NCBI GenBank assembly: GCA_000934665.2
Contig: JYFJ02002726.1
Span: 1 to 51,966 of the forward strand
Length of the DNA: 51,966 bases
Source of the DNA: Catajapyx aquilonaris
Lineage: Eukaryota
Direction of reading: 5' to 3'
The stretch's first letter is position 1. Each line of letters starts with the position of its first letter. The notes beneath the pieces are model-generated. The model was not told where the DNA came from and ran no database searches. It saw only the letters and a list, made by a program, of their open reading frames with translations. The position numbers and the translations under genes were made by a program. Below are positions 7,631 to 49,745 of the stretch, piece by piece.

Positions 7631-10600
7631 CGATGCCACCACATGTCTCCCTCATATTCTTTTCTCCCCAAACCCCCCCACCACGTGATTGTGGACTGAT
7701 TTGTGGCTGAGGCTGCACGCCCTACTCTCTCCCCTACTCTGAAAGAATGAAGTGAGAACAAATCTGAGGATTCACCTTTGGTTTATCTATGACCTATACA
7801 GTAATTTTTTGACTTTGGTTAACGCTTTTTGCACGGCTCCTAGGAGAGCAAGAGGCGAAAGGCTTGCACTGTAGAGTCTCAAATGAAAACCGTATTTGTT
7901 GCAACTCTGCCCCCCAAACCCAATGATTTGAAATTTCAGGCCGTGTATGTGAAGTTAAGCTGTTTATTTTCATAAATATAATAATCTCAATTATATCAAA
8001 TTTTTTTTGTCTATTATGTTACATATTAATTATTTTCTGTTTTGCGTTGCAAAACCTGATGTTTCACCAAATAAATGCCTCATATTTTCCATGCTGTAAA
8101 GTTCAGTCTGGTATGCCATGTACAAGGAAATAAATTATTGCTTAAAACCTTGTGTATTTTCATGTAAAGCCGGTCCATGCAAAAATTGGAAGTGTATATA
8201 TGTATTTGCATGAATGTACCATATATGCAGGAAATGATAATGAAACTTTGCATGTACTGTACATTGGATTTGATTTTTGAAGAAACCTGCGATAGTTTCA
8301 TCCCCCTTTTCTTCAGAAAAGGCCTCATCAGGTGACACCATGCGTTAAAGCTTTTTGTACGTGCAACACCTAATGAACAACTGACAGCGCTCATGTTTAT
8401 TTGTACTGCACTCAGTCTTGCGGCATGTGACTTGAAGAAACTACCCACGTCCACATTTCACAACTTCCTCCTCCCCAGTAAGACTTGGACCTTACGAAAT
8501 AGTCGCCAGTACATAAAAAAAAAATACATTTTGCGGTGAGCCCCTGAGAGTGGGAGCCCAACTGAAGGAGTCGGATGTCAGGCGCATCCGACACGGAGAA
8601 TGGGAGTTTTGCAGACTCCGGAACCGGGGTCTGGAGATGCTGATGGGGGGAGGAGGAAGTACAAGAAGAGAGGGGGGAGACTGAAGAAGAAACCGAAGAA
8701 GGAAGGCAGTCGCGTGTTGCAGATGAAGGGTGCGTCCCATTGAAGCACCTGCTCATTTCCATTACACTATTGAGTGGTATGCTGCATCGGCCCAACACAA
8801 ATAAACCAAGGTTCTTGCAGACAACTTGGCCAAAACATGCGGGAGCCCGAAAAGAGGGTCGGTTCATCGAAAGGAAGTAAATGATTTACTTATCCATGAA
8901 TAGACGGCTTGTTCTTTGACTCTGTCCAGAGGGGCCTATGGTGTCCAAAAATGGGAGGTTTGCCTACCGTCCATCGACACCTCAAAGTGAAATTACAACC
9001 AAACATGACCCACTGATTGATATGGTCGAGTGACGCGGGTTGATTAAGGGCACCGGAACTGATGAAGTGGAGGGTCCCTTGCTACCCACCAAAAAGACTG
9101 GAAGCGACGACCCCAAGGCCTCATTATTTCTTAATGACCATTTGGGGGCGAAAGGGCAGCTGTGGTTGGAAGGAAACAAGAGACCGACCCCACATCCATA
9201 AGACCCACTAAGACCCAAAATTAGAAATGACCAACTTTTGTAGGGATTTGAATGTAGGAATCGACAGTGTGTGTCCCTCCCCTCACAGAAAATGGTCCAG
9301 ATGTGTCACCCATGAGCAAAAAAAGGGGAGATTTATTTCTGGGAGGTTGAGGAAGCTGGGTTCAGATGAATGTGGAACTTGTGTTTGGACATGGTCACGG
9401 AAGAGGAGATTCAGAGGCTGACCCTTTTTGGTGGTTTGTCGGCCATTCTGTCGGCGTGGGGCAAGCAAAAGGAAGCCGACAGTTTGGTATTGAGAGGAAC
9501 ACCTGAGACTGGCTCAGCTCAACCTGCAAGACCCCGCCTTCTCCCGTGCTGGCCATCAAAGAAAAGGCCGCCTTCTCTCAGACCCAACCAACCTTCCAGG
9601 TTATATTTTGCTTCAGGGTGAGAACAGAAGGACGCTTCTTAACATGCAAAAAAAAAAAATGTGTACCGGTTTGGGCCATATTGATCTGTCCTGTATTGGG
9701 CTGATTGCTAATTATTTCAATGCACTAATTTGATCGTGATTTATGCAGATAAAATTACGGCCATTAACTTGATTTGCTGACGGTGCTGTGTACATGTTCG
9801 ATGATGATGCAGTTTCCTGCTGGCTAATGTTGATATTATCTCTCGTTATTCCTGTAGCGCCGATGCCACTGATAGCATAGTATCAGGTTAGGTAAACCCG
9901 ATTTTATATGGCGGAGTATAAGCCCGCACATATGCGCTTTTATTAGCCTCCTTTAAATAAATAAATCCGCATTTAACATGATTCTACCCGTACGAAACAC
10001 ATGGTTGCCAATTAGTTGTACCTAAACTCTATACACATGAAATTTTCCACGCAAATGTGGAACTGTTAGGTCAAACGCGAGTGTCAAATGTAGTTTGGTT
10101 GATAAGCATTTCATAGACTGTGGTTCTATCATTAGTAAGCCAGCACGTTGTCAGTGTTATTACTGTTATAACATGACATACTCTCGTCAGGTGCTGGTGC
10201 TTGATGGCCAAGTGTCGTCGAAATGCAGTGGATTTTAATCGGCAGATTATAGTGCAGCTTCCATCTACGTCTATAGTTCACTTCTTCATCTAACCGTAAG
10301 TATCTACTAGAAGCCGTCTGTGAATGTGATTATTGACTTTCTCATCTTTCGCACCTCGTGTATGAATGTGCATGTATACTTTCGGCGGGGCTGTGCATAT
10401 GCATCATGATATAATAGGAATAATAATAGGAATGATTTTAATAGGAATGGAGATTTTGACTTGGCCCATAGTAATGTGTATAGGATATAATTTAATACTA
10501 TGGTTAGCATTGCCGACATACCAAACCATGCTTATCTGTATCAGAAATATTTACAAGTGAAATCCAAAACCACTAGGGGTTCAAGTTCGCATGACCCCCT

Positions 10601-14480: not shown

Positions 14481-15118
14481 GTTTTAGTTCATTAGTGACT
14501 TCATTTTTAAGAAGGCCAAATATGCATTTGTCTTATCAGCTGGTGTCACGTGTCATTTCTAGACACCCATAAGTGCATAATTAGGTGTCAATTACTGGTA
14601 GCGTGCATCCCCACCTGGTGCCAGTGAGTCACTTCTGATACAACTGTCAACGCGTGCCACCGTGCTAAATAGTTCACGTGATTCATGAAAACAATGCCCA
14701 CAGATTCTTCGAAATATACCCCTGATTTACATACTTGATAATGCAATAAACGGCGTATACCAGGAGCCCGTACACATGTCCAGCATTCATCTTAGCCCAA
14801 CCAGTCGTCTCCAGTATTTTACGACTTCAAAAAACACGGCCTAAAATAATGATGAAATGCACCCTGGAGGACCCCAAGCACCGCCCCTTCCAAGCCCCCA
14901 GAGCCTATACCCTCGTCTGGGCGGAGTCTATCTCTCCAAGAATCCTCTTCCCCTCCTTCCCCCTTCCCCCCCTCCAAAAAGGGCAGGTGGAAAGTACCCC
15001 CCGATGAAGGCGGTGACATATCGCCAAGGAGAGTCTTTGAGAGAGCTGCACTTTTGTCACGCTCCGCAACAGCTGCATCTTCCGGTTGTCTCAAAACCAG
15101 TGAGAAAGGTCAGTCACG

Positions 15119-15829
15119 ATGCTTAGGAGCATGGATAAGCCAGGTTCGACCCAGTATGACTTCAAGTACGAGGTACCATCCCCACCGTACTACCAGACGG
15201 ACTTTGTCAATTCGTCTCCGGAGTCGATGTATCCCAACCAGCAGCAACAACAGCCGCAAGTGTATGCCACACCTGGGTTTGTGAACTACCCGTACGACCC
15301 GACCATCATGTGCAAGACCGAGTTGGGGTACCAGACGCTGATGGCCCAGCCGAAGACCTACGCGCCTGTCATCTCGCCAAAAGAGCGCAAGAGGAAGAGG
15401 GCTTCGTCGGCTGGAGGCAGCACCAGCGGAAGCGACACTGAGGAAGGCAGCACCAGCGGGGACAACTCGTCGTCATCTCTGTCGTCCAAGAAGCTGAGGA
15501 GACGGGCCCAGTCGTTCGAGGACCTCCAGAACCAGAGGGTGATGGCCAACGTTCGGGAGAGACAGAGGACCCAGAGCCTGAACGACGCTTTTGCCAAACT
15601 GCGCCACACCATTCCGACCATGCCATCGGACAAACTGTCCAAGATCCAGACCCTCCGGTTGGCATCCAGCTACATCGACTTCCTCTCTCAGGTCATCCTC
15701 ACCGGAGAGACAGAGTCCAAACCACCAGCATGCAACTTCTACGGTGTCCAGCAAGGTCTCAGCCAGGCATTCGGACTCTGGAGGATGGCCGGGACATGGA
15801 GCGAATCGGAACTCAACTCCATCTCGTAA
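15119..15829 (+). CDS. twi: Twist-family bHLH transcription factor (start could also be the ATG at 15131)
   Basis: The bHLH reads [59 protein letters not shown]. There is a C-terminal WR motif ([14 protein letters not shown]) and basic NLS-like stretches (KERKRKR, KKLRRR). Confidence 0.93.
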
Positions 15830-16496
15830 GTTGTAATTGTCGCAATCATTTAATTGTAAATACAACCGGGACAGTATGTTCCTGTTGCATTTACAAAATA
15901 TGGTCGCATATTTTGGGAAAGTGTTGTGCAGGGACTCCCTGGGCAGGTCGAGAAACTCTATCTGCCCCACCAAGTTGACCCTGCGCTAGTGACCTTGCAA
16001 CCAAATGGGTCAAGTTTCAGTAGCTGCAGGTTCAACCGATGGTCCCATCCACCCAGGGGTCGCTTCCTAATCATGATTTAGGATCGAGAGGCGTGTCCGA
16101 CTTCCCAAAATTTTCTCTCTCTTTTTTTTGGTTCTCAGTTTCGGAACCCAGCATCCCCCCTCGACCTTTTCGTCATTCCCCAGGCGGTCCTTTGTTGTCG
16201 CAGCCTCCTGTCCTTTTTGTCAGACAGCACTTGCTCCCCATCCATCTGCCTTTTTCCCTCTGAAGCTTCCTGCTGGCTTCTGGGAATCTGCAGAAGCCAG
16301 TTTCTTCACACCTTATCTGCTCCGCTTTCTTTCAATTTCTGACAAAATGAGGTTCGGGACAGCGCGACTTTTTCAACCCAGCTATTTCGGTATACGGAAT
16401 GTTTGCGTATTGGAACATTTGGAAGCCCAAAAATTGAATGTAAACACTTATTTATTTTGAGGCGGTTAGTTTTGTGCATTGTAATTGTTTTTGGGT

Positions 16497-17088
16497 TCAT
16501 ATCATGTGGACATCGCACACTTCATGTTTCGGCGGACCTTCTACGTTGTATGGTGTCTGGTAGGCATGGTACGGTCCTTTAGGCGGGTCACCAGATCGAG
16601 GCATGGTCAGATAGGTCGGGTTCAGCGCAATAGGGTACTTGGTAGTCCATGGGTACAGCGGAGGATTAGGCCACCTCCTCTGCAACTCCAATTCTCGTGT
16701 GTACACATGACGTGGTGGGTACGACAAGGGTGTCGTAGCTGCTTTTATCAGCTTCTGTGCATTTTGGGTATATATCAGAGTATCCAACAGTTCGCGGCGA
16801 CGACCTGCAAGTTACTAGTGTCAGTAATTTACATGGTAAAGGAACAGACCAGGTCATACCCATTTGTGGTCCCACGACGTATATCTTAGGTTCGAACCAG
16901 AATCGCTTGTATTTATCAACAATCGGCTTCTCCTTTCCCACATCCTTGTGTACGCATGGTTCGCCCTTGGTCAGATTGCAGCAAGTTGGTCCCAGGTACT
17001 CAGACCGGTACATGCAGTTCGGGAACTGCTGCCCAGGAGGTCTTGGACACCCGCAGTCATGTCCTTCCCTTTTTATAGCCCGTACCAT
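16497..17088 (-). CDS. Putative unannotated two-exon gene (exons 17088-16860 and 16804-16497), 178-aa Pro/Tyr/Cys-rich protein of unknown function
   Basis: Start context ACCATGG. A 55-nt intron G|GTATGA...TACTGAC...TTGCAG|GT joins two ORF-track fragments in phase (229+308 nt = 179 codons). AATAAA lies 40 nt after the stop (16456-16451), and X-box GTTGCTTGGTAAC at 17134-17146. Confidence 0.65.
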
Positions 17089-17133
17089 GGTTCTAACACC
17101 TTCCTAAGCTAAAAGTTGGAATACGCTTGTTCT

Positions 17134-17146
17134 GTTGCTTGGTAAC
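17134..17146. promoter_or_regulatory. RFX X-box upstream of the orphan antisense gene
   Basis: GTTGCTTGGTAAC fits the GTNRC-N(1-3)-RGYAAC consensus, about 45 bp upstream of the ATG at 17088. Confidence 0.55.
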
Positions 17147-20100
17147 ATGTTTTGCCCCCATCAAATGCGTTTGGCATAAGCGTCCAATTAGACATGCGAC
17201 GAAATACGGCGCCCGTCATGCGAATCATAAATCGGCGCCTCGTTGAAGTCGGTACCGTTTTTTCACAAAGGTCCGGTCAGTAAAAGAGACCGCGTTCTGA
17301 ATCATCCATAAACAAGTGCAGTAAATTTTTTTGACTCGGCCTAATTTTTGGGCAGGTATTGCCATCTGCTTCTTCGGTTATTTTATTTCCTGAGGCCAAG
17401 AAGGCCAAAGATTGTTCTACCAGATCGTGGGCTGCTGAGTGTGATTGCTTTTCCACAGACCGACTGTTACATTGACAGGCAAGGGAAAGGAGGTGCCCAA
17501 ACGGTGGTCACCATAATCCCAAGCCCATTTAGTTATAGGCCTCCCGCGGCTGCAAAATCTATTAGGTTTGCCCAGAAAATTGCGAAGAAGTCAATTGTGT
17601 TAGTTCATCCTCCTGAAAAAAAAGTGGTTTTTGGCAAGACTATTCGGACAAGAGAATGAGCCAAAGGAGCGCTCTTAGCAATCCGTCTTCCCTAAAAGAG
17701 TGTGAATATATCCGGAGATTCTGGACACGAGCCCAAGACTGAGGGTGTAAGATCTTAAGGAATCGCTCGGGATACGCCCCAAGTTTTTTTTTTGGGAAGA
17801 TTTCTATGCACAACACACGCTTTCAAACTAGTTTAAAACTACTGAGTTTGTAATGCCAAGTGACAAGGATGTTATTAACACATTTATCTTTTCGGTTTTT
17901 TTTGCAGGTAAGCTTTGAGGCGGCTGCATTTGCATTTGGTTTGAAGCCGAAGATTGGTGCCAAGGATTTGTGTGATTTTTGTCTGCAGCTGGAGGTGGGA
18001 TGCAGCCTTATAATGTATTCAGAACTACTGCCTATAGTTGGCTAATTTTTTTATATTGACAATCATGTTCAAAATGCAAGGCCTTTTGCAGTAAATTATT
18101 TTCATAGCACAGTATTTTTACAATTGTGCTGGGTGTGTATAGATTATTCAGATACTCTCTGCATTGTTAGCATGCTGGATTTTTTAAAAAATGGATAAAG
18201 ATTTATGGCATGAACGTCAGAACCAAGTTGTACAAATATTATTTAGATTTGTAATAAAATATTTTTAACTTGACTCCTATTTTTCTTTATCGCAAATATC
18301 TAGACATTCGGGCACACTTCTGCTGATAAAGAGTGCAGCATCTCAAGTAAAACTGTGCTTATCTCCTATTTACATGGATTAAGAACTGGGTCCGAGATTG
18401 GATTCCGTCTTGAGTCAGCAGACTCACTCGAAATGACTCATTCCAATAATATTCACTCCTGATCACATCTCAAATCGGGTTCGAGTGACCAACTTCAGGC
18501 TTAAACTAACTCTAAAAGTCAGTGGACATAGCCTCGATTTTTGGTGAAACTAATAAATATTCTGGGACTGAATCTTGATAGTGCATTTCAAGGGAAATGA
18601 TGGGGGATAAAACGTCAGAGCCGGAAGCGCACATGGCATTTTTCCATCAACGACATCGCGACAGTGGAGCCTTTGAGATCCGAAGGGTTGACACACACTA
18701 ACAGCCAGACCAGAACTTTAAAAAAAAAGTGCCCATTTACTTAACACTTTGATGCTTTTTTTGCCGCTGTAATACATCGTGGTTGTCATTTCACAAGATT
18801 GGATCATGTGTCGCTTGGGATTCCACGAGACTGATTCAAGTGTAGGGGACATCGACTTCTGCTGTGACACTTCGTCCGATCTATTTCCGAGTAACTAATT
18901 AGGTTGAACGGAGCCTGTAAAAGTGACAGAAAATTGAAAAATTAACCCGGGGTTTTAGTCGACAACAATAAAATTTTCCACTTTTCTAGCTGAAGAATAT
19001 TTCCTGTCTTAGTTACAACCGGCGGAAATAAATAGGGTTATTTTCCGCTCACCCTGTAGTTGGCTGTCGGATGTAGTCAGATTCATTAGCTTACCGCCAT
19101 TTTTTTGTCGTATAATAATATGATTTCGAGAGAAAAACAGGAAAGACACCATTTTTCATAAGATGCTATGGATTAGATGCCATGGAAACATATTCATCTT
19201 CCCATTTTTGTTTCCAACTCCGCCCAATGTGTCGCTTTTGACTAACGATCCGGAAAGTGTGAATTCGAGTCAGGATTTTCATGTCGTTTGATTGACACCT
19301 GCCAAAAACAGGTCCGGACTTAAAATTAATGAAGTAGCTGCAAGTAGTTTTAAGTCGTAGTAAGTAGCATGAGTCTGTACTTTTTTTTCTTCTTCTTTCG
19401 TAAGTGTTCGTAACAAACCACGGGAGAGAGGCCTCCAACTCGACAAGATGAATCAGAGACATATCACATTACTAGTGATGTGACAAAAAAACGTGTCGCA
19501 GTTTTCTATCCCATGGCCTTGTTGGCCCTGGACTTAGCTTCAGTTTTGCTACCGACAAAAAGACATCTGACTCATCCTATCCGATTTACAAATAATGCAT
19601 TTAGTAACTTAATTAATTAGATAATAGCCGACATACTAAGCTGTTCGGCGGCTTAACAAACGAAATCTTCAGACTCAATTTCATGTGCTGAAAGAGTGGA
19701 GCCGCTGTCAATCACATGCCGCAGGTAGCCCAATTCAGGCGGCTCCACACATGCTTTTATAGTGATCCCAGCATGTCAGTGTAGGTTGTGACGTAGTTAA
19801 TCCCCATCCATTGATTACCATGTGTTACAAACAGACTCTCTCACCTTGATTCCCACGCTTGGCCAATCGTAAGCTCAAAGGGGGCGCGGATGACGTTTTT
19901 CATCTCTCGAAAATGAATCTTCGACGTGGAAATATGGTTCTGGAACTCTGTTGAAAGGAGGGGACAGCACGTGACAACCGGAAGAGACACCATCAGTGGC
20001 AGCTGCTCAGAAGAATGTCCCAGGGGACAACAAAAATCCCGATCATTTCAGACCATGTTTATTTACTCAGTTCCGGCTTCCATGTCAAATGTCAATACCC

Positions 20101-24792: not shown

Positions 24793-25743
24793 TCATGTCC
24801 CTTGCAGGGTTAGGAAGGGCAAACTGTCTCTCCGCGTGAGGACGCAAGCGAGCACGAACAGAAGCCCAAAGTAAATGTTGAGCTTGGCAGTCCTCTTGGG
24901 CACATCCTTCACCCTCCCGCACCGAAACTGCTTTTCCAGGCGGAAGGCAGACGGCAGTGTCAGCAGTGGGAAGAGGAACCAGTATGAGTGGTGCAAGGCC
25001 AGCACCACCAGGGCTGTGTATGGAGAGAAGAGGAGGAAGGCGTACAGCACATGCGAGGCGGTGTCCCCAACCAGAATGGCCAGCGTGACGATCCCAGCAC
25101 GGGCGTCAGACTCCATGTCACGCGTGTTGTTGCTGTGAAGGATGGCCTCCGTGTTGAGGGCAAGCGGGACAGCATAGTACATCGCGCCCCAGTCGAACCG
25201 CCCAGTTTGGGCAAGGAACGAGAACAGCAGCGTTACAGGCCCGAATATGACCAATATCAGAACATCACCTAGCGCAATGTACTTCAACCCAATCCCTCCT
25301 GTGTACAAAAACGAGCTTGACAGGCCACCAAAGTACACCAGGGCAAGGTGCTCCATACGTGCTGGCGACAGAGCAGCCAACACGATGAACCCCAAGCACC
25401 CCAGGCCGTACAGGGTGGCTCCAAGCGTCACAACCTCATCCTGCGACAGTATATGGTCAACCAGGGTCCGGTCCTCACTAGCTTTCTGGCTGTCTATTCC
25501 CTTCACATAGTCATAGTACGTGTTGACCAGGTTTCCAGCGCCATGGACCGACAGCGCCGTAAGTAGCGTAACCAGCAGCGTAGCCAGGCTGCAATCCCCT
25601 GTGCTCTTGTGTGCCAGCGCGCATCCAAGCAGCACCGGCACCAGCGATGCAGAGAACGACCACGGTCGCAGCGCCAGGACATAAGAGGAGAACTTCATCA
25701 GGGCCGGCGCCTCCTTCGGCCCCTTCACATTATTCTCACTCAT
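24793..25743 (-). CDS. UBIAD1: UbiA prenyltransferase domain-containing protein 1 (heixuedian; vitamin K2/MK-4 prenyltransferase), single coding exon
   Basis: YVLALRPWSFSASL, GNLVNTYYDYVKGID, DRTLVD, YTGGIGLKYIALGD and AILHSNNTRDMESD (NxxxD motifs), with multiple TM segments. A splice acceptor ttccag lies directly before the ATG, implying an upstream exon. Confidence 0.96.
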   Translation of the reverse strand: MSENNVKGPKEAPALMKFSSYVLALRPWSFSASLVPVLLGCALAHKSTGDCSLATLLVTLLTALSVHGAGNLVNTYYDYVKGIDSQKASEDRTLVDHILSQDEVVTLGATLYGLGCLGFIVLAALSPARMEHLALVYFGGLSSSFLYTGGIGLKYIALGDVLILVIFGPVTLLFSFLAQTGRFDWGAMYYAVPLALNTEAILHSNNTRDMESDARAGIVTLAILVGDTASHVLYAFLLFSPYTALVVLALHHSYWFLFPLLTLPSAFRLEKQFRCGRVKDVPKRTAKLNIYFGLLFVLACVLTRRDSLPFLTLQGT

Positions 25744-25844
25744 CCTGGAAGGTAAACACACCAGTTACTACACCGCAACACTTCATCGCACTTGTACTAC
25801 AAATAAAACAATATTTGCACCCTGCTGCGTTATCTACATGCAAA

Positions 25845-29800: not shown

Positions 29801-32800
29801 CTCGAGTTATGGAGGTCATTCGAGGATCTCTGCCAACCAAGGTATTATCTTCTCCTCTGTTTTTGGCCTATGATTTTTCCCTCTGCCTGTAGCCTAATAC
29901 GGTATGCACAAACAAGCAGGGAAAAGCAACTATTTTGGGAAATGACAGGAAATGATGCAGGTGGCTCTGTGTGTTTGTAGGGCGGCATTCTACACTGCAA
30001 GGAAAGAATGCAAGGAATTTATTGTGCCCTTGAACTGTAAGGAACATCATTTCTGTATGGCTGTCATTTCGTGCCTCTTGCATAATCAGTTCAATTAATG
30101 TTTATGTCTGGCGGTACTGGAGTGCAGGAGAGACGGGGATTCATAAATAAGAATTACTGACCATTAAAATGAGATTTGTTGTTTTAGGAAACACCGACAA
30201 AGAAACGGACCCAAGCTATAGATCCAGCAGTATTCACATGCATAACGATGCTGGCCAGGGCAGTGAAGCTGCAGCTCAAGACAGACGTCAAAGATTTGCT
30301 GGAACCAATGCTGGCCACAGGGCTGAGTCCCTCTCTCACAGCCGCCCTTAGGGAGCTGGCCATTCAGATACCACCGCTGAAGAAGGAGATTGCGGACGGC
30401 CTGCTCAGGATGCTTTCCTACACTTTGATGCACCGGCCGTTGCATCATCCTGGGATGCCCAAGAACCTCATTCCCACAATGTCACCAGGGCTGACACCTG
30501 AGCCCAATGACGTAGCTAGTCTAGTTCTGGCTCTCAGGACACTCGGAAACTTTGATTTCGATGGTCAGTTGAAGTCAGTTTCGTTCTTTTGTCTTCCTCA
30601 TTCTGAGGTAGCATGAGTTTATCCATTTCTTTAGTTCCCTAAAATAATGAACCTATTCTTCTGCAGGTCACTCCCTGCTGCAGTTTGTACGACACTGTGC
30701 TGACAACTTTTTGACGAGTGAACAGAAGGAAGTGAGGCTGGAGGCAGTGCGCACATGCAGCAGGCTCTTGAGGCTGGCCTTGCAGACTTGCAATACAAAC
30801 AGGCCCTCCCAGACGCTAATGACCACTGTTGGGGATGTACTAAGCAAGCTTCTAGTTGTCGGAATCACTGACACAGGTGAAGTAGTTGTGCCAAATGCAT
30901 TTGCTATTTCTGGATAGCTCAAAATTAATCATTTCATAGTGTATGCTTATCATACTGGAGTACTTACAGTTAGTGAAGCATGAAATGCAAATGTATGCTA
31001 TTTCACGCAGATGCTGAGGTTAGATACTGCGTTTTGGAGTCACTGGATGCCCGGTTTGATGACCACTTGGCCCAAGCTGACAACCTTGGGGCTCTGTTTG
31101 TGGCTGTGAATGATGAAGTATTCGAGATACGTGAGCTGGCCATCTGCACCATTGGGCGTCTGAGTGGGAAGAACCCTGCCTATGTTTTGCCGTCACTGAG
31201 GACTATTCTTATTCAGGTTGGTTCAGATTTATGGCCCAGTATTCATTCACATGTGGAGCATAAATTGGATTTTCTTCACCATGCTTCTATAAAACTTGGT
31301 GATAGTGTATTATGATGCGCGTAACATCAGAGGGGAAACGACACCTATGTCAACCTTCATAGTGTTGTAAATAGACATTGATTGATCTCACTTTGATTTC
31401 TGGCAGCTTCTGGCAGAACTGGAATTCAGTGGCATAGGACGCAACAAGGAACAGAGCGCACGGATGCTTGGCCACCTGGTGTCAAGTGCTCCCCGCTTGA
31501 TTAAGGCCTATATGGAACCAATCCTCAAGGTGCTAGTCCCCAAGCTGAAGGAGCAAGATCCAAACCCTGGTGTGATGATCAGCGTTCTGACTGCAGTGGG
31601 TGACCTAGCCCAAGTCAGTGGCACTGCCATGCGACCTTGGATGGATGAGCTACTGTCCATTCTCCTGGACATGCTGGCTGATGCTGGGAGTCCTGCTCGC
31701 AGAGGTGTGTCTCTTTGGACTTTGGGACAGCTGGTGGAGAGCACGGGATACGTCATCACTCCTTACCACCAGTTCCCTTCACTGCTGGATGTCCTCCTGA
31801 ACTTCCTTAAAACGGAGCAGCAACCACTCATACGGCGTGAGACCATTAAGGTATTGTTGCTTTTAAAATAATTGCGCAGTTTCAAGAGATGTTGTTTTCA
31901 TGTGAGGTTTATGTGGCTTCTCTTTAGGTGTTGGGACTTTTGGGTGCACTTGACCCATACAAGCACAAGATGGACTTGGGACAAATTGATGCACAAGGTG
32001 GCTCAATAGCATTGGTGTCCATGACTGACCCCAAAGGCGAGATGGAGGCGAATCAGGATCTGAGTACCAGTGAGATGCTTGTCAACATGGGACCAACATC
32101 TTTGGAAGAGTTTTATCCAGCTGTGGCAATATCAATGCTGATGAGAGTGATTCGCGACCCAACCCTTTTTCAGCATCACACCATGGTGGTGCAGGCTGTC
32201 ACATTCATTTTTAAGTCATTGGGGATCAAGTGTGTGCCATATATATCCCAAGTCATGCCCAGCTTGTTCAATGTGATAAGGACGGCTGATGTGAACTTCA
32301 GGGACTTCCTCTTCCAGCAGCTAGGTGTGCTCATCTCCATTGTGAAGCAGCACATTAGGAACTACCTTGACGATATCTTTGAGCTCATCAAAGTAAGTCG
32401 TGATTCTTGATTCAAAAGAAATTTTGTTAATGAGGTGTATCTTTTGCCAGGAATTTTGGACAGTTAACAGTCCACTCCAGACAACGATTATACTCTTGGT
32501 GGAGCACATAGCAATTGCACTGGGAGCTGAGTTTAAGGTCTACCTCTCACAACTAATCCCTCAAATTCTACGGGTGTTGATGCATGACACTAGCAAAGAG
32601 CGGATAGTGACTGCTAAGGTATGCTATTATTTCATAAGTCCTGCAGTGCATTAATGTGTTGATAATATATTGTCATGCTTTATTCTGATTTCTTTACAGT
32701 TACTTAATGCACTCCAAAAGTTTGGGAACAACTTGGATGACTACATGCATTTAGTTCTACCTCCTGTGGTGCGCTTGTTTGATGCTGCAGATGTCCCTAT

Positions 32801-35800: not shown

Positions 35801-38800
35801 CTCATGGACATTGGAAAGAATCATCCGCAGGCTCTGATCTACCCATTGACAGTGGCCTCCAAGTCGGCCAGCCCTGCCAGGCACAATGCTGCGAACAAGA
35901 TTCTCAAGAACATGTGCGAGCATAGTCCCATGCTAGTACAGCAAGCCATGATGGTGAGGGAATTGCATTGCAAGGAAGATGTGTTAGAACTGCCGAAGCT
36001 TGAATTGCTTCATTCTATTCTGAAATTAGGAAAGTGTAGCTGCTTCACCCGTCTCTTTTTCATGCAAAGAAAGTGCAGAAGAGAGACTCGCAGATAATTT
36101 CTTGTCAGTTTTCTGTGTTAGACACGTTTCTTTAAAAATTTCATTCTTTCAGGTGAGTGAGGAGCTGATCAGGGTGGCCATTCTGTGGCATGAGTTGTGG
36201 CATGAAGGCCTAGAGGAAGCATCTCGCCTCTTCTTTGGAGAACGTAATGTGCAGGGAATGTTTGCCACCCTCGAACCTCTGCATGCCATGCTGGAGCGGG
36301 GTCCACAAACACTCAAGGAGACTTCATTCAACCAGGTGATTGTGACTTTTTTTGTGTACAAAAAACTTCATAACTTGTGACTAATTCAATATGGATTCAC
36401 CTCTGAAGCGATGCAGAAGTTATTTGTGTTTGCTGTGTGTAAAACTGTTACGTATTATTTGAGTGCACATATTAGAAGTCTTACTTGCATAATTGATAGG
36501 CTATAGCAAGGTTCACAAGTTGTTATTGCATCACGTTATTATTTGATTTTGATAGTAAATTTTGATAATCTTCTGGAATCTCACATTTAATAATTTCTTG
36601 GCTGTGTGAGAAACGATTGTTTTTAAAAATCCTCCTTATTTTAAAAAACAGGCATATGGTCGTGACCTGGCTGATGCCCAGGAATGGTGCCGTCGTTACA
36701 AGATCTCGGGCAACATACGTGAGCTCAACCAGGCCTGGGACCTGTACTACCACGTCTTCCGACGTATATCTCGCCAGCTTCCGCAGCTTACCAGCTTGGA
36801 GCTTCAATACGTGTCACCAAAGTTGCTAATGTGTCGTGATCTGGAACTTGCTGTACCTGGAAGCTATGTTCCAGGGCAGCCTGTAATACGCATTGCTCAG
36901 ATGCAGAGTTCTCTGCAGGTCATAACTTCCAAGCAGAGGCCTAGGAAGCTCTGCATTAAAGGTTAGTGTCTAGTTGAATCACACCTGAATTGTTTGCCAA
37001 GCATGACTGTGCTTCTTATTTAACATTTTTTGTTATGTTGAGAATGTAGATGCAAGGGAGGTAATATTTATTTCTCAGGGAGCAATGGAAAGGACTTTAT
37101 GTTCTTGCTGAAGGGCCATGAGGATCTTCGTCAAGATGAACGTGTGATGCAGCTGTTTGGCCTGGTGAACACCCTCTTGATCAACGATCCAGACACATTC
37201 CGGCGCAACTTGACAATCCAACGATATGCAGTCATTCCCTTGTCCACCAACAGTGGATTGATTGGCTGGGTACCGCATTGTGACACCCTCCACACCCTCA
37301 TCCGGGATTACCGAGAGAAGAAGAAAATACTGCTAAACATTGAGCATCGCATCATGTTGAGGATGGCACCTGACTATGACCACTTGACCCTTATGCAGAA
37401 GGTGGAGGTGTTTGAACATGCTCTGGAACATACCCAAGGGGATGACCTGGCGAAGTTGCTGTGGCTCAAGTCCCCGTCTTCTGAGGTGTGGTTTGATAGG
37501 CGGACCAACTACACCAGGTCACTTGCTGTCATGTCCATGGTTGGGTACATCCTTGGATTGGGAGACAGGTCAGTTCAGATTTTGTGTTGCTATTTCATAA
37601 GTATAATAATAATTGCTATGAAACAGTGCAATGTGTCACCATTTTAGGGCCAGAATTGAAGAGCATGTTTGCAAATGAGTTCTTCAATTATTATGCATCA
37701 TGAAACTACTTATTAGTTGAATTATGATGTCTCAACTTTTGTACCTGCAGACATCCTTCAAACTTGATGCTGGATCGCCTGAGTGGCAAGATCCTTCACA
37801 TTGACTTCGGGGACTGCTTTGAAGTGGCCATGACCAGAGAGAAGTTTCCCGAAAAGATTCCTTTCCGGCTCACACGTATGTTGATCAATGCCATGGAAGT
37901 AACTGGTATTGAAGGCACATACCGGCGCACCTGTGAGTCTGTCATGACTGTCCTGCGTCGCAACAAGGACAGCCTCATGGCGGTTTTGGAGGCCTTTGTT
38001 TACGACCCCCTCCTCAACTGGAGGCTGATGGACAATATTGCCACCAATAAGGCGAAACATTCCAAAGCAAGAACAAACTCGATATCATCCTCATCACAGG
38101 AGACCGCAGTTGGAGGAGGAGGAGGGGGCGTTGTGGGAGGTGTGGGCATAGGTGCTGGGGAAGGAGGGATAGATATGGTGGGGAACCTGAGCAGCGGAAA
38201 GGGAGTCAAAAAACCAGACATATCAGATGGAGGTGCAGGTGAGTTGCAAGTCCATTAAGGGAATATTTGATCTGAAATAGGCAAAGTACTTGTATACAAC
38301 CTGGGACACTGCTGTTACCGACATCTGTGGATACAAAGTCTTTCTTGATCAAACACATTTTCTTGGGAAGACTTTTATTCACTGTAAGCAAAAGTTTGCA
38401 ATCAGTTCTAGAAATGGGTGGAAAATTCACTCCCTCATTTAGTTAAACGTACATGTAATGAAAGGATTTTATGTTGTGTTTCACTGCTGAATGTCTCTCG
38501 TACTTGGAAATGGCATGATGATGATGATGATTTTATGTTCTGCTGGGTATTTTTCAGACTTAGATAGCAACCAACCTGAAGCTCTCAATAAAAAGGCCCT
38601 GAACATCATAAATCGTGTGAGGGATAAGCTCACAGGAAGAGATTTCTCGCATGAACACGGCACCTTAACTGCACCAATTCAAGTTGACCTGCTGATAAGG
38701 CAGGCCACTTCGCATGAGAACCTGTGCCAGTGCTACATTGGATGGTGGGCTGATTTTTTATATTTTCCTTGATTTTCACAGGTTTGGGTTTTCTAAATAT

Positions 38801-47300: not shown

Positions 47301-49745
47301 TGTTGCAGTACATTTTGGTCGAGGATCTGTTGCAGGTTGCGCTTACCTTCTTTCACCTCCAGGTCGTGCCCCAGGTCACATGTGGAAGGAGCCGAAATTT
47401 CCGACAGAATGTTGGTTCCTGACCCTACACTGCCACCACCTGGCCTTGTTGCCAGCTTGCCGCAAGTACCAGCGGCGCTTGAGAGCCCTCCGCGACCTGC
47501 AGAAGATGGCGGAAGAGATGCAGCTCTCGGAGCACCACTGGAGGGACCTCCCTGTGGCCTCCCGCAACAGGGAGCTCATACGCAGGTGGCGCCAGCAGAT
47601 TAAGAAGCTCACCCGCAGCAAAACCTGCGCTGATGCTGGTTTGCTGCATGAGGTGCTGCTCACCCGCTGCCTCAACTTCTACACCACGGCTGCTGAGTTC
47701 CAGCTCGGGTTGCTGATTCCTGGAGGCGTCGTTGCTGGGGGGATGAGGGGGTTTGTTGAAGTTCCACTGCCTCAGGAGGCACCGCAAGGGTTCTCGGCAC
47801 TGCCAGAGTGGTACGTCGAGGACATTGCTGACTTCCTGCTCTTCACACTACAGTGAGTTGAATTTATTACGCTGGTATAGTTCATTTTTCATTTCATTTC
47901 ATCTATTTAACCTCCCTGTCTCATTTCACTCATCATAAGTGATATTTTGTGAATAGTAAGCGAGTCGATTTGGGAAGTTTGGAAACTGACAGAATTGTTT
48001 GCTTGTTCCCAGATTTTGTCCCCAAGTGGTGGGCGAGAATACCGAGGATGCCCTGATTCTGTGGCTGCTCCTCATGGTGTGCACTCCGCAGTACATCAAG
48101 AACCCATACCTGGTGGCCAAGCTTATAGAAGTGTTGTTTGTAATCAATCCATATATCCAGCCCCGCACTCAGAAACTCCATGACAGGGTCATGTCGCATC
48201 CAGTGGCCGAGCAGGCATTACCCTCCTGCCTCATGAAGTTCTACACGGAAATAGAGACCACTGGGGCCAGCTCAGAATTCTACGATAAATTTACCATTCG
48301 ATACCACGTCAGCATCATCTTGAAGGGAATGTGGGATAGCCCAATGCATCGCAGGTGTGTTCGCAGGTTCTGTCTTTGCACAATAATTTCATGAAAGCTG
48401 TGTACTTACTATCATTTGAATTTTTTTCTTTTACAGATCCATAGTTGATGAGTCTCGGTCAGGCAATCAATTCGTAAAGTTCATCAACATGCTTATGAAT
48501 GACACGACATTCCTGTTGGACGAGTCCCTCGATTCCCTGAAGCGAATTCACGAGGTGCAGGAAGCAATGGCGGATCAGAAGACGTGGGCCAGTCAGGCGC
48601 AGGACCTGCAGCAGACCCGTCAGAGGCAGCTGACGACTGACGAGCGTCAGTGTCGCTCCTACCTCACCCTGGCCCGTGAGACTGTGGACATGTTCCACTA
48701 CCTCACTGTCGAAATCAAGGAGCCATTCCTGCGGCCAGAGCTTGTGGACAGGCTGGCGGCCATGCTCAACTTCAACCTCAAGCAACTTGGGGGGCCCAAG
48801 TGCAAGGACCTGAAGGTCAAGAATCCCGAGAAGTACGGGTGGGAGCCTAGGCGCCTTTTGGGCCAACTGGTGGACATCTACCTCCACCTGGACTGTGATG
48901 CATTTGCAGCTGCCCTGGCAGCAGACGAGGTGAGGATATGTTCCCCACTTGTTGTAACCATTTCGTGCTGCTACTATGTGCTTATCTGTCTCTGGATCTT
49001 TTTAGCGGTCCTTTACAAAGGAACTGTTCGAAGACGCGGCTCAGCGCATGGAGCGGGCCTTGATCAAATCCGCATCGGAGATTGAGCACTTCAGGGAGCT
49101 GGCTCAGAAGGCGTATAATATTGCAGTTCAAAACATAAAGAAGGAAGTGGATTTCAGCGATGCTCCAGATGAATTTAGGGGTGAGTTGACTCGGGTTCTG
49201 AGGACTTTCCAAACTTGGTGATTGCCAATTTTCCAATCGTCAGATCCCTTAATGGACACTTTGATGGAGGATCCCGTGATCCTGCCCAGTGGGAAGGTGA
49301 TGGACCGACCAGTGATTGTGCGGCACTTGCTCAATTCATCCACTGATCCATTCAGCAGGCAGCCACTCTCGGAGGACATGTTGCAGCCAGGTAATGAAGT
49401 GTTTGCTTTTATAGGCAGCTGTGGTGGTTCGCTAGCAAGGAGCAACAAAAATAAGTTATTTAATCTTATAATCACATAGGAGTCATTTAAGAGCTCGTTT
49501 GCAAAACCACCTAAGTCAGTGGGTTTCCCTGTCGACTTAGGCGGTTTTGCAAATGAGCTCTTCTGTTGGCAAGATGTGCGTGCCAAGTGAGATACTCAGG
49601 ACTTAATTTGTACATGGCCTGAACCCTGACTAAATATTCAAAATTGCTTCATTTCTTTACTGCAGTACATTTATGAAGTTGTTTTATTGCAGCTACTGAC
49701 TTGAAGAAGAGAATTGAGGCCTGGAAGGTACAGAAGACTTCTTAA
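44392..49745 (+). CDS. UBE4B: Ubiquitin conjugation factor E4 B (Ufd2, U-box); about 11 coding exons
   Basis: N-terminus [24 protein letters not shown](G)MEV motif, Ufd2 core ([48 protein letters not shown]) and U-box ([42 protein letters not shown]). The stop is TAA at 49743. Confidence 0.96.
46373..46542. mobile_element. PIF/Harbinger-type MITE in a UBE4B intron
   Basis: Inverted ends agcggtgtttacatgtgagcaattcgacgagcgaa / ttcgctcatcagatcgctcacatgtaaacgcacct, flanked by TAA on both sides. Confidence 0.8.
49489..49562. repeat. 74-bp hairpin in the last UBE4B intron
   Basis: 29-bp arms aagagctcgtttgcaaaaccacctaagtc / gacttaggcggttttgcaaatgagctctt with 2 mismatches. Confidence 0.85.

Follow-up and report, generated by a model that had tools for sequence, protein, structure and literature searches.

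Does the DNA downstream of twist in Catajapyx aquilonaris carry a small protein-coding gene on the opposite strand, or do its open reading frames and the signals around them coincide by chance? This question was addressed in the whole stretch of DNA that was analysed, a window of 51,966 nt, in which the original prediction had joined two minus-strand frames into a two-exon gene and had linked its product to cilia and sperm tails. Our preferred reading, held at a probability of about 0.55, is that the candidate is a real, unannotated and lineage-restricted two-exon protein-coding gene, arranged tail-to-tail with twist. That it is transcribed, spliced and translated is given slightly better than even odds from its sequence. 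The features of the locus and of its neighbourhood are collected in Table 1.

Table 1. Positions of the candidate gene features and of the recognisable genes in the window.
Feature	Position	Strand	Description
X-box, palindromic RFX-type	17134..17146	.	46 bp upstream of the candidate ATG
Exon 1, coding part (candidate)	16860..17088	-	ATG start, 76 codons plus 1 base; translation Cys-containing, basic
Intron, proposed	16805..16859	-	55 nt, GT-AG, phase 1
Exon 2, coding part (candidate)	16497..16804	-	2 bases, 101 codons and TGA; Pro/Tyr-rich
AATAAA polyadenylation signal	16451..16456	-	40 nt past the candidate stop
twist bHLH ORF	15119..15829	+	Pfam HLH 3.8e-17; best PDB match Twist-related protein 1 (TWIST1) 4.1e-26
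TRAPP subunit	about 4.2-4.8 kb	+	
UBIAD1	24793-25764	-	
mTOR	about 27.5-38.3 kb	+	
Cytidine deaminase	39.6-40.1 kb	-	
UFD2/UBE4 ligase	44.7-49.1 kb	+	

Reading of the sequence placed the minus-strand start codon at 17088-17086 in the context ACC ATG G, with an in-frame TAG (17106-17104) six codons 5' of it on the same strand. The proposed intron has the donor TGG/GTATGA and the acceptor TTGCAG/GT, and it contains a branch-like TACTGAC at 16826-16820, of which the A at 16821 lies 16 nt from the intron 3' end. The frame closes with a TGA at 16499-16497 on the minus strand, and the joined coding sequence of 537 nt encodes 178 amino acids plus the stop. Exon 2 must be preceded by another exon, since its frame reaches an ATG only late on. 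The AATAAA of the candidate (16456-16451) is one of only two on the minus strand between 15000 and 19000. The G+C content is 51-52% in the exons, 40% in the intron and 43-48% in the flanks. The predicted product has a mass of 20.7 kDa and a pI of 9.3, is hydrophilic and contains 25 Pro, 13 Tyr, 13 Arg, 13 Lys and 7 Cys. Sequence analysis revealed neither a signal peptide nor a hydrophobic N-terminus, and since no fold was confidently predicted either, the product is probably intracellular and largely disordered. The start codon, the intron, the length of the product, the AATAAA and the X-box were thus all present as the original prediction had described them. Taken as a generic protein-coding gene, the candidate has a start, splice sites, a stop, a polyadenylation signal and a coding composition above chance.

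The strongest competitor of the gene model, which we nevertheless regard as somewhat unlikely, is that there is no gene: the frames would be chance openings in intergenic or twist 3'-flanking DNA and the X-box, the AATAAA and the GT-AG pair would be coincidental. In a variant of this explanation the X-box belongs to another regulatory element. The joining of the two frames was therefore compared with what the window offers elsewhere. An exhaustive search of both strands was made for two-exon models that begin with an ATG, encode 178 or more amino acids in all and have 40 codons or more in each exon, with a GT-AG intron between 45 and 120 nt long. The window contained 60 such stop-defined models, most of them over real genes. 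Seven of the 60 were situated in non-genic DNA. Two of these belong to the candidate locus, where one runs on the opposite strand; the remaining five are spread over three further regions (8.1-8.9 kb, 10.4-11.4 kb and 20.1-21.0 kb). Since so many models can be built, the in-frame joining of two ORFs is by itself no evidence, and for the ORFs of the candidate it is no more than chance, as an origin from chance frames would have it.

The coding composition argued in the opposite direction. A three-periodic second-order Markov model was trained on 20 recognisable exons of the conserved genes of the window and set against a null model trained on 28 kb of its non-genic DNA. Exon 1 scored 0.124 bit per codon and exon 2, which carries the stronger signal, 0.168 bit per codon; in both exons the proposed frame was the sole positive one of six. 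The exon 2 score was the highest among the 71 non-genic ORFs with 75 amino acids or more, and with the two minus-strand ORFs of the locus itself left out, the other 69 reached at most 0.051 bit per codon. A plain codon-usage score gave the same ranking. The spliced candidate obtained 27.8 bits and the unspliced ORF of 140 amino acids 0.0 bits. The signal is specific to one frame in each exon and switches frame at the only well-formed GT-AG pair. When the best one- or two-exon model was taken at each stop codon, the candidate locus came first of 1066 non-genic stops with 28.6 bits (for a variant of 116 amino acids), ahead of a runner-up at 19.3 bits. None of 100 simulated non-coding sets of equal size reached 27.8 bits (mean 11.8, sd 2.5, max 19.5), and neither did any of 1000 dinucleotide-preserving shuffles of 16400-17200 (mean 6.6, sd 3.1, max 21.0). 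The candidate score thus lies 6-7 standard deviations over both the simulated and the shuffled nulls, and chance does not account for the coding-like composition of the proposed frames. This is difficult to reconcile with chance frames, as are the three independent flanking signals that stand where a gene would need them. In favour of chance, the per-codon score of the candidate falls at or under the bottom of the range of the 20 real exons (0.149-0.488 bit per codon, leave-one-out), and its total of about 28 bits is far under the 100-190 bits of the neighbouring genes.

Two further observations were made during scoring. The runner-up is a Lys/Gly-rich ORF of 47 amino acids at 8600-8743 (+), whose score is probably a composition effect. 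The plus-strand ORFs 16485-16889, 16739-17107 and 16840-17112, which lie opposite the candidate, had negative scores and no Pfam match and were set aside as shadows cast by the minus-strand frame.

The position of the splice junction was examined with the same score. By coding score the proposed intron ranked second of 166 splice variants, with the longest ORF retained, behind a variant of 116 amino acids with its ATG at 17013 and an intron at 16920-16755 (28.6 bits, versus 27.8 for the proposed model). The coding score alone therefore leaves the junction unfixed; what favours the 55-nt intron is that the frame stays longest with it and that its splice consensus is by far the better one. In comparison with its neighbours this intron is less typical, which would suit a chance pair of splice sites. 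At eight of eight short-gap junctions of mTOR and UBE4 the shortest frame-compatible GT-AG intron measured 70-134 nt, lengths that are lower bounds only, and the candidate intron would be the shortest of the window. The tract before its acceptor is also weaker, with pyrimidines in 7 of the 13 bases preceding the AG, where six acceptors of the neighbourhood have 10-12, a comparison made by eye. For two of the neighbouring junctions, confirmation came only from the conserved mTOR sequence. Overall, we take the splice signals of the candidate to be neutral or a little unfavourable.

The plus-strand sequence of the X-box is GTTGCTTGGTAAC and its minus-strand sequence GTTACCAAGCAAC (GTTACC A AGCAAC), with two perfect half-sites separated by a spacer of 1 nt. 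The minus-strand form, GTTACCAAGCAAC, matches GTNRCCNRGYAAC perfectly, and no other perfect match occurs in the window, against an expected number of 0.14. The X-box is also the sole site in the window of the form RTNRCC N1-3 RGYAAC, given by Laurencon et al. (2007; PMC2375033) as the strictest consensus for Drosophila RFX targets, and it fits GYTRYY N1-3 RRHRAC as well. Shuffled sequence contained on average 1.13 strict sites per window, so that the presence of one such site in 52 kb is unremarkable, as the explanation by chance would hold. The placement is another matter: the chance of a strict X-box within 150 bp upstream of this ATG is about 0.003 (1.13 x 150/51966), and a distance of 46 bp from the candidate ATG, close to the 45 bp originally proposed, is beyond chance. 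In Table 2 of the Drosophila study the palindromic X-boxes of dRfx-dependent genes are situated mostly 60-141 bp from the ATG, and some D. pseudoobscura X-boxes reported there lie 5-56 bp from it (PMC2375033). The candidate shares with these dRFX targets a proximal palindromic X-box, and one site listed in the same table, GTTACC T AGCAAC, differs from that of the candidate in the spacer base only. In that work a single-species X-box ahead of an ATG is described, with respect to the most degenerate consensus, as not predictive of RFX control, and it was conservation in a second species that made the motif predictive (PMC2375033). The candidate product also differs from dRFX targets in that it has no orthologue among known ciliary proteins. 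Control of the candidate gene by RFX is therefore a tentative proposal, plausible on the evidence of the motif but less likely than not, and a function of the product in cilia or the axoneme, to which the same single motif points, is unlikely.

Homologues, families and folds were searched with separate exon translations, by which a match needing both halves together would be missed. In Pfam, exon 1 hit no family at E up to 1, and no match was obtained for the unspliced or the opposite-strand ORFs of the locus. A match of exon 2 to PF15234 (LAT; E 0.006, 16.8 bits, under the 27-bit cut-off) was rejected as a match of Pro/Tyr composition. A phmmer search with exon 2 against 1.84 billion representative proteins gave no match at E up to 0.001, and word-index searches with each exon separately found none among longer proteins. 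Among the 177,635 distinct PDB sequences, searched by phmmer at E up to 10 in a copy that we assume to include the solved doublet-microtubule proteins, none matched exon 2 and exon 1 retrieved one chance RNase (E 4.3). Metagenome scans with both exons yielded pattern matches only, none of which was confirmed. The ESM Atlas returned only unnamed bacterial clusters at 0.79-0.91, and with recognition scores of 1900 and 1418, where most known families reach 2300, these were discarded as noise. Rfam recognised no family in the whole window. AlphaFold2 folding of exon 1 alone gave a pLDDT of 41 and no secondary structure, and was uninformative.

This lack of a homologue in the Pfam, PDB, phmmer, word-index and metagenome searches is what chance frames would produce, and its weight was judged from the neighbouring UBIAD1. 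This protein is 64-72% identical to named arthropod proteins (orthopterans, mayfly, hemipterans, beetles, Daphnia). With relatives at about 70% identity in UBIAD1, a small fast-evolving protein would be undetectable, and the blank is weak evidence against the gene. One protein 95% identical to UBIAD1 indicated that a close relative is sampled at least in part, which makes the blank slightly more than nothing. Exact look-up found neither the unspliced 140-aa ORF nor the UBIAD1 protein in the collection, and since UBIAD1 is missing too, the lack of an annotated candidate product says nothing on this species. Of the original prediction, the gene model is upheld by its frame-specific and top-ranked coding score, which no shuffle equalled; the link to sperm-tail and microtubule-inner proteins, drawn from the P/Y/C-rich composition, found no backing from any Pfam family, PDB chain or relative.

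A less probable alternative to a protein-coding gene, which we consider quite improbable, is that the locus has a promoter and polyadenylation site of its own and is transcribed, but yields no functional protein, either as a non-coding antisense RNA of the twist 3' region or as an unselected, very young de novo ORF. It would account for the lack of a relative in the phmmer search of exon 2 and in the other searches, for the low-confidence fold of exon 1 and for the weak codon bias. The arrangement with twist would also suit it. The two are convergent, their stop codons lie 668 nt apart, and no AATAAA or ATTAAA was found on the plus strand between the twist stop (15829) and 18253, so that the transcripts may overlap. 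On the other hand, such a transcript leaves unexplained a frame-specific signal of 28 bits in keeping with the codon statistics of ancient conserved genes, and the overlap with twist is itself a possibility rather than an observation. A third explanation is very improbable, namely that the locus is a remnant, whether a pseudogene in decay or a piece of a transposable element or retrocopy, and still coding-like in composition: such a composition without a detectable family would fit a diverged relic, but the frame is intact across 178 codons with start, splice, stop and polyadenylation signals, the long frames of the locus contain no transposon or other Pfam domains, 15000-19000 holds no terminal or internal repeats beyond short chance matches, and a retrocopy would have no intron.

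The relation of the candidate to twist depends on how far the twist transcript extends. The original prediction had placed the gene antisense inside the twist 3' region; its position downstream of the twist stop, pointing towards twist, agrees with this as regards location only, and nesting within the twist transcript is a possibility. The TAA of twist overlaps a perfect donor-like GTAAGT hexamer (15824-15832). Given this hexamer and the lack of a canonical plus-strand polyadenylation signal before 18253, the 3'UTR of twist may undergo splicing or be of great length, and it may run across the candidate. Between twist and UBIAD1 lies an interval of 9 kb, in which the candidate is situated and no other convincing frame was found.

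Taking the candidate as a protein-coding gene, its predicted promoter, with a canonical palindromic X-box, would initiate transcription a few tens of bases 5' of the ATG. If bound by RFX at this site, the gene would be turned on in ciliated cells; in insects these are chiefly type I sensory neurons. There is reason for caution about the testis, which the original prediction had named as an alternative. The mRNA would undergo one splicing event, removing the 55-nt intron, and would be polyadenylated about 60-70 nt past the stop. In its most specific form, the proposal is that of an RFX-target orphan whose product, basic, disordered and Pro/Tyr-rich with a mass of about 21 kDa, belongs to the sensory cilium (or the sperm axoneme), and which is overlapped by a long twist 3'UTR; this full combination is decidedly unlikely.

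Small axonemal and microtubule-inner proteins are often basic, hydrophilic, Pro/Tyr-rich and extended or disordered. The predicted product resembles the SPMIP, CFAP and SAXO proteins only in this character, being small, basic, hydrophilic, Pro/Tyr-rich and probably extended or disordered. It has no match above the gathering score to SAXO/STOP or other curated small axonemal Pfam families, and in the PDB search for solved microtubule-inner and sperm-tail proteins its exons match no chain beyond the chance RNase. With arthropod orphan genes the candidate shares a short ORF, one short intron, weak codon bias, low fold confidence and the lack of a relative among the 1.84 billion representative proteins searched with exon 2; its orphan status is provisional, as a fast-evolving orthologue may be out of reach or unannotated.

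If the gene is real, one lineage-specific component would be added to the RFX-controlled ciliary gene set in a poorly sampled arthropod group. It would also mean that a short intrinsic test, consisting of a frame-specific coding score trained on neighbouring genes together with promoter and polyadenylation signals, can extract unannotated small genes from raw sequence. A convergent overlap with twist, if true, would be relevant to the antisense regulation of developmental genes, and would make a natural sense-antisense pair of a mesoderm regulator and a cilium gene. No current view would be overturned by this. Small orphans and targets of RFX are familiar kinds of gene, and specialists would not be surprised.

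Some features of the wider neighbourhood were recorded in addition. The likely mTOR/UBE4 introns at 31851-31927, 36962-37078 and 48355-48436 are 77-117 nt long and have strongly T-rich acceptors. Their donors (GTATTG, GTTAGT and GTGTGT) are non-consensus, and GTRAGT-type donors seem uncommon in this genome. Just upstream of UBIAD1, the segment 25650-26540 contains long ORFs in several frames on both strands with recurring peptide motifs, e.g., GNPHLDKQTS; it looks like a tandem-repeat block and inflates ORF-based gene models there. The genes for UBIAD1, mTOR, cytidine deaminase and the UFD2/UBE4-type ligase are clustered within 25 kb (24793-49085). UBIAD1, MTOR and UBE4B adjoin likewise on human chromosome 1p36, and the UBIAD1/mTOR/UBE4 cluster may be an old conserved linkage in a compact arthropod genome.
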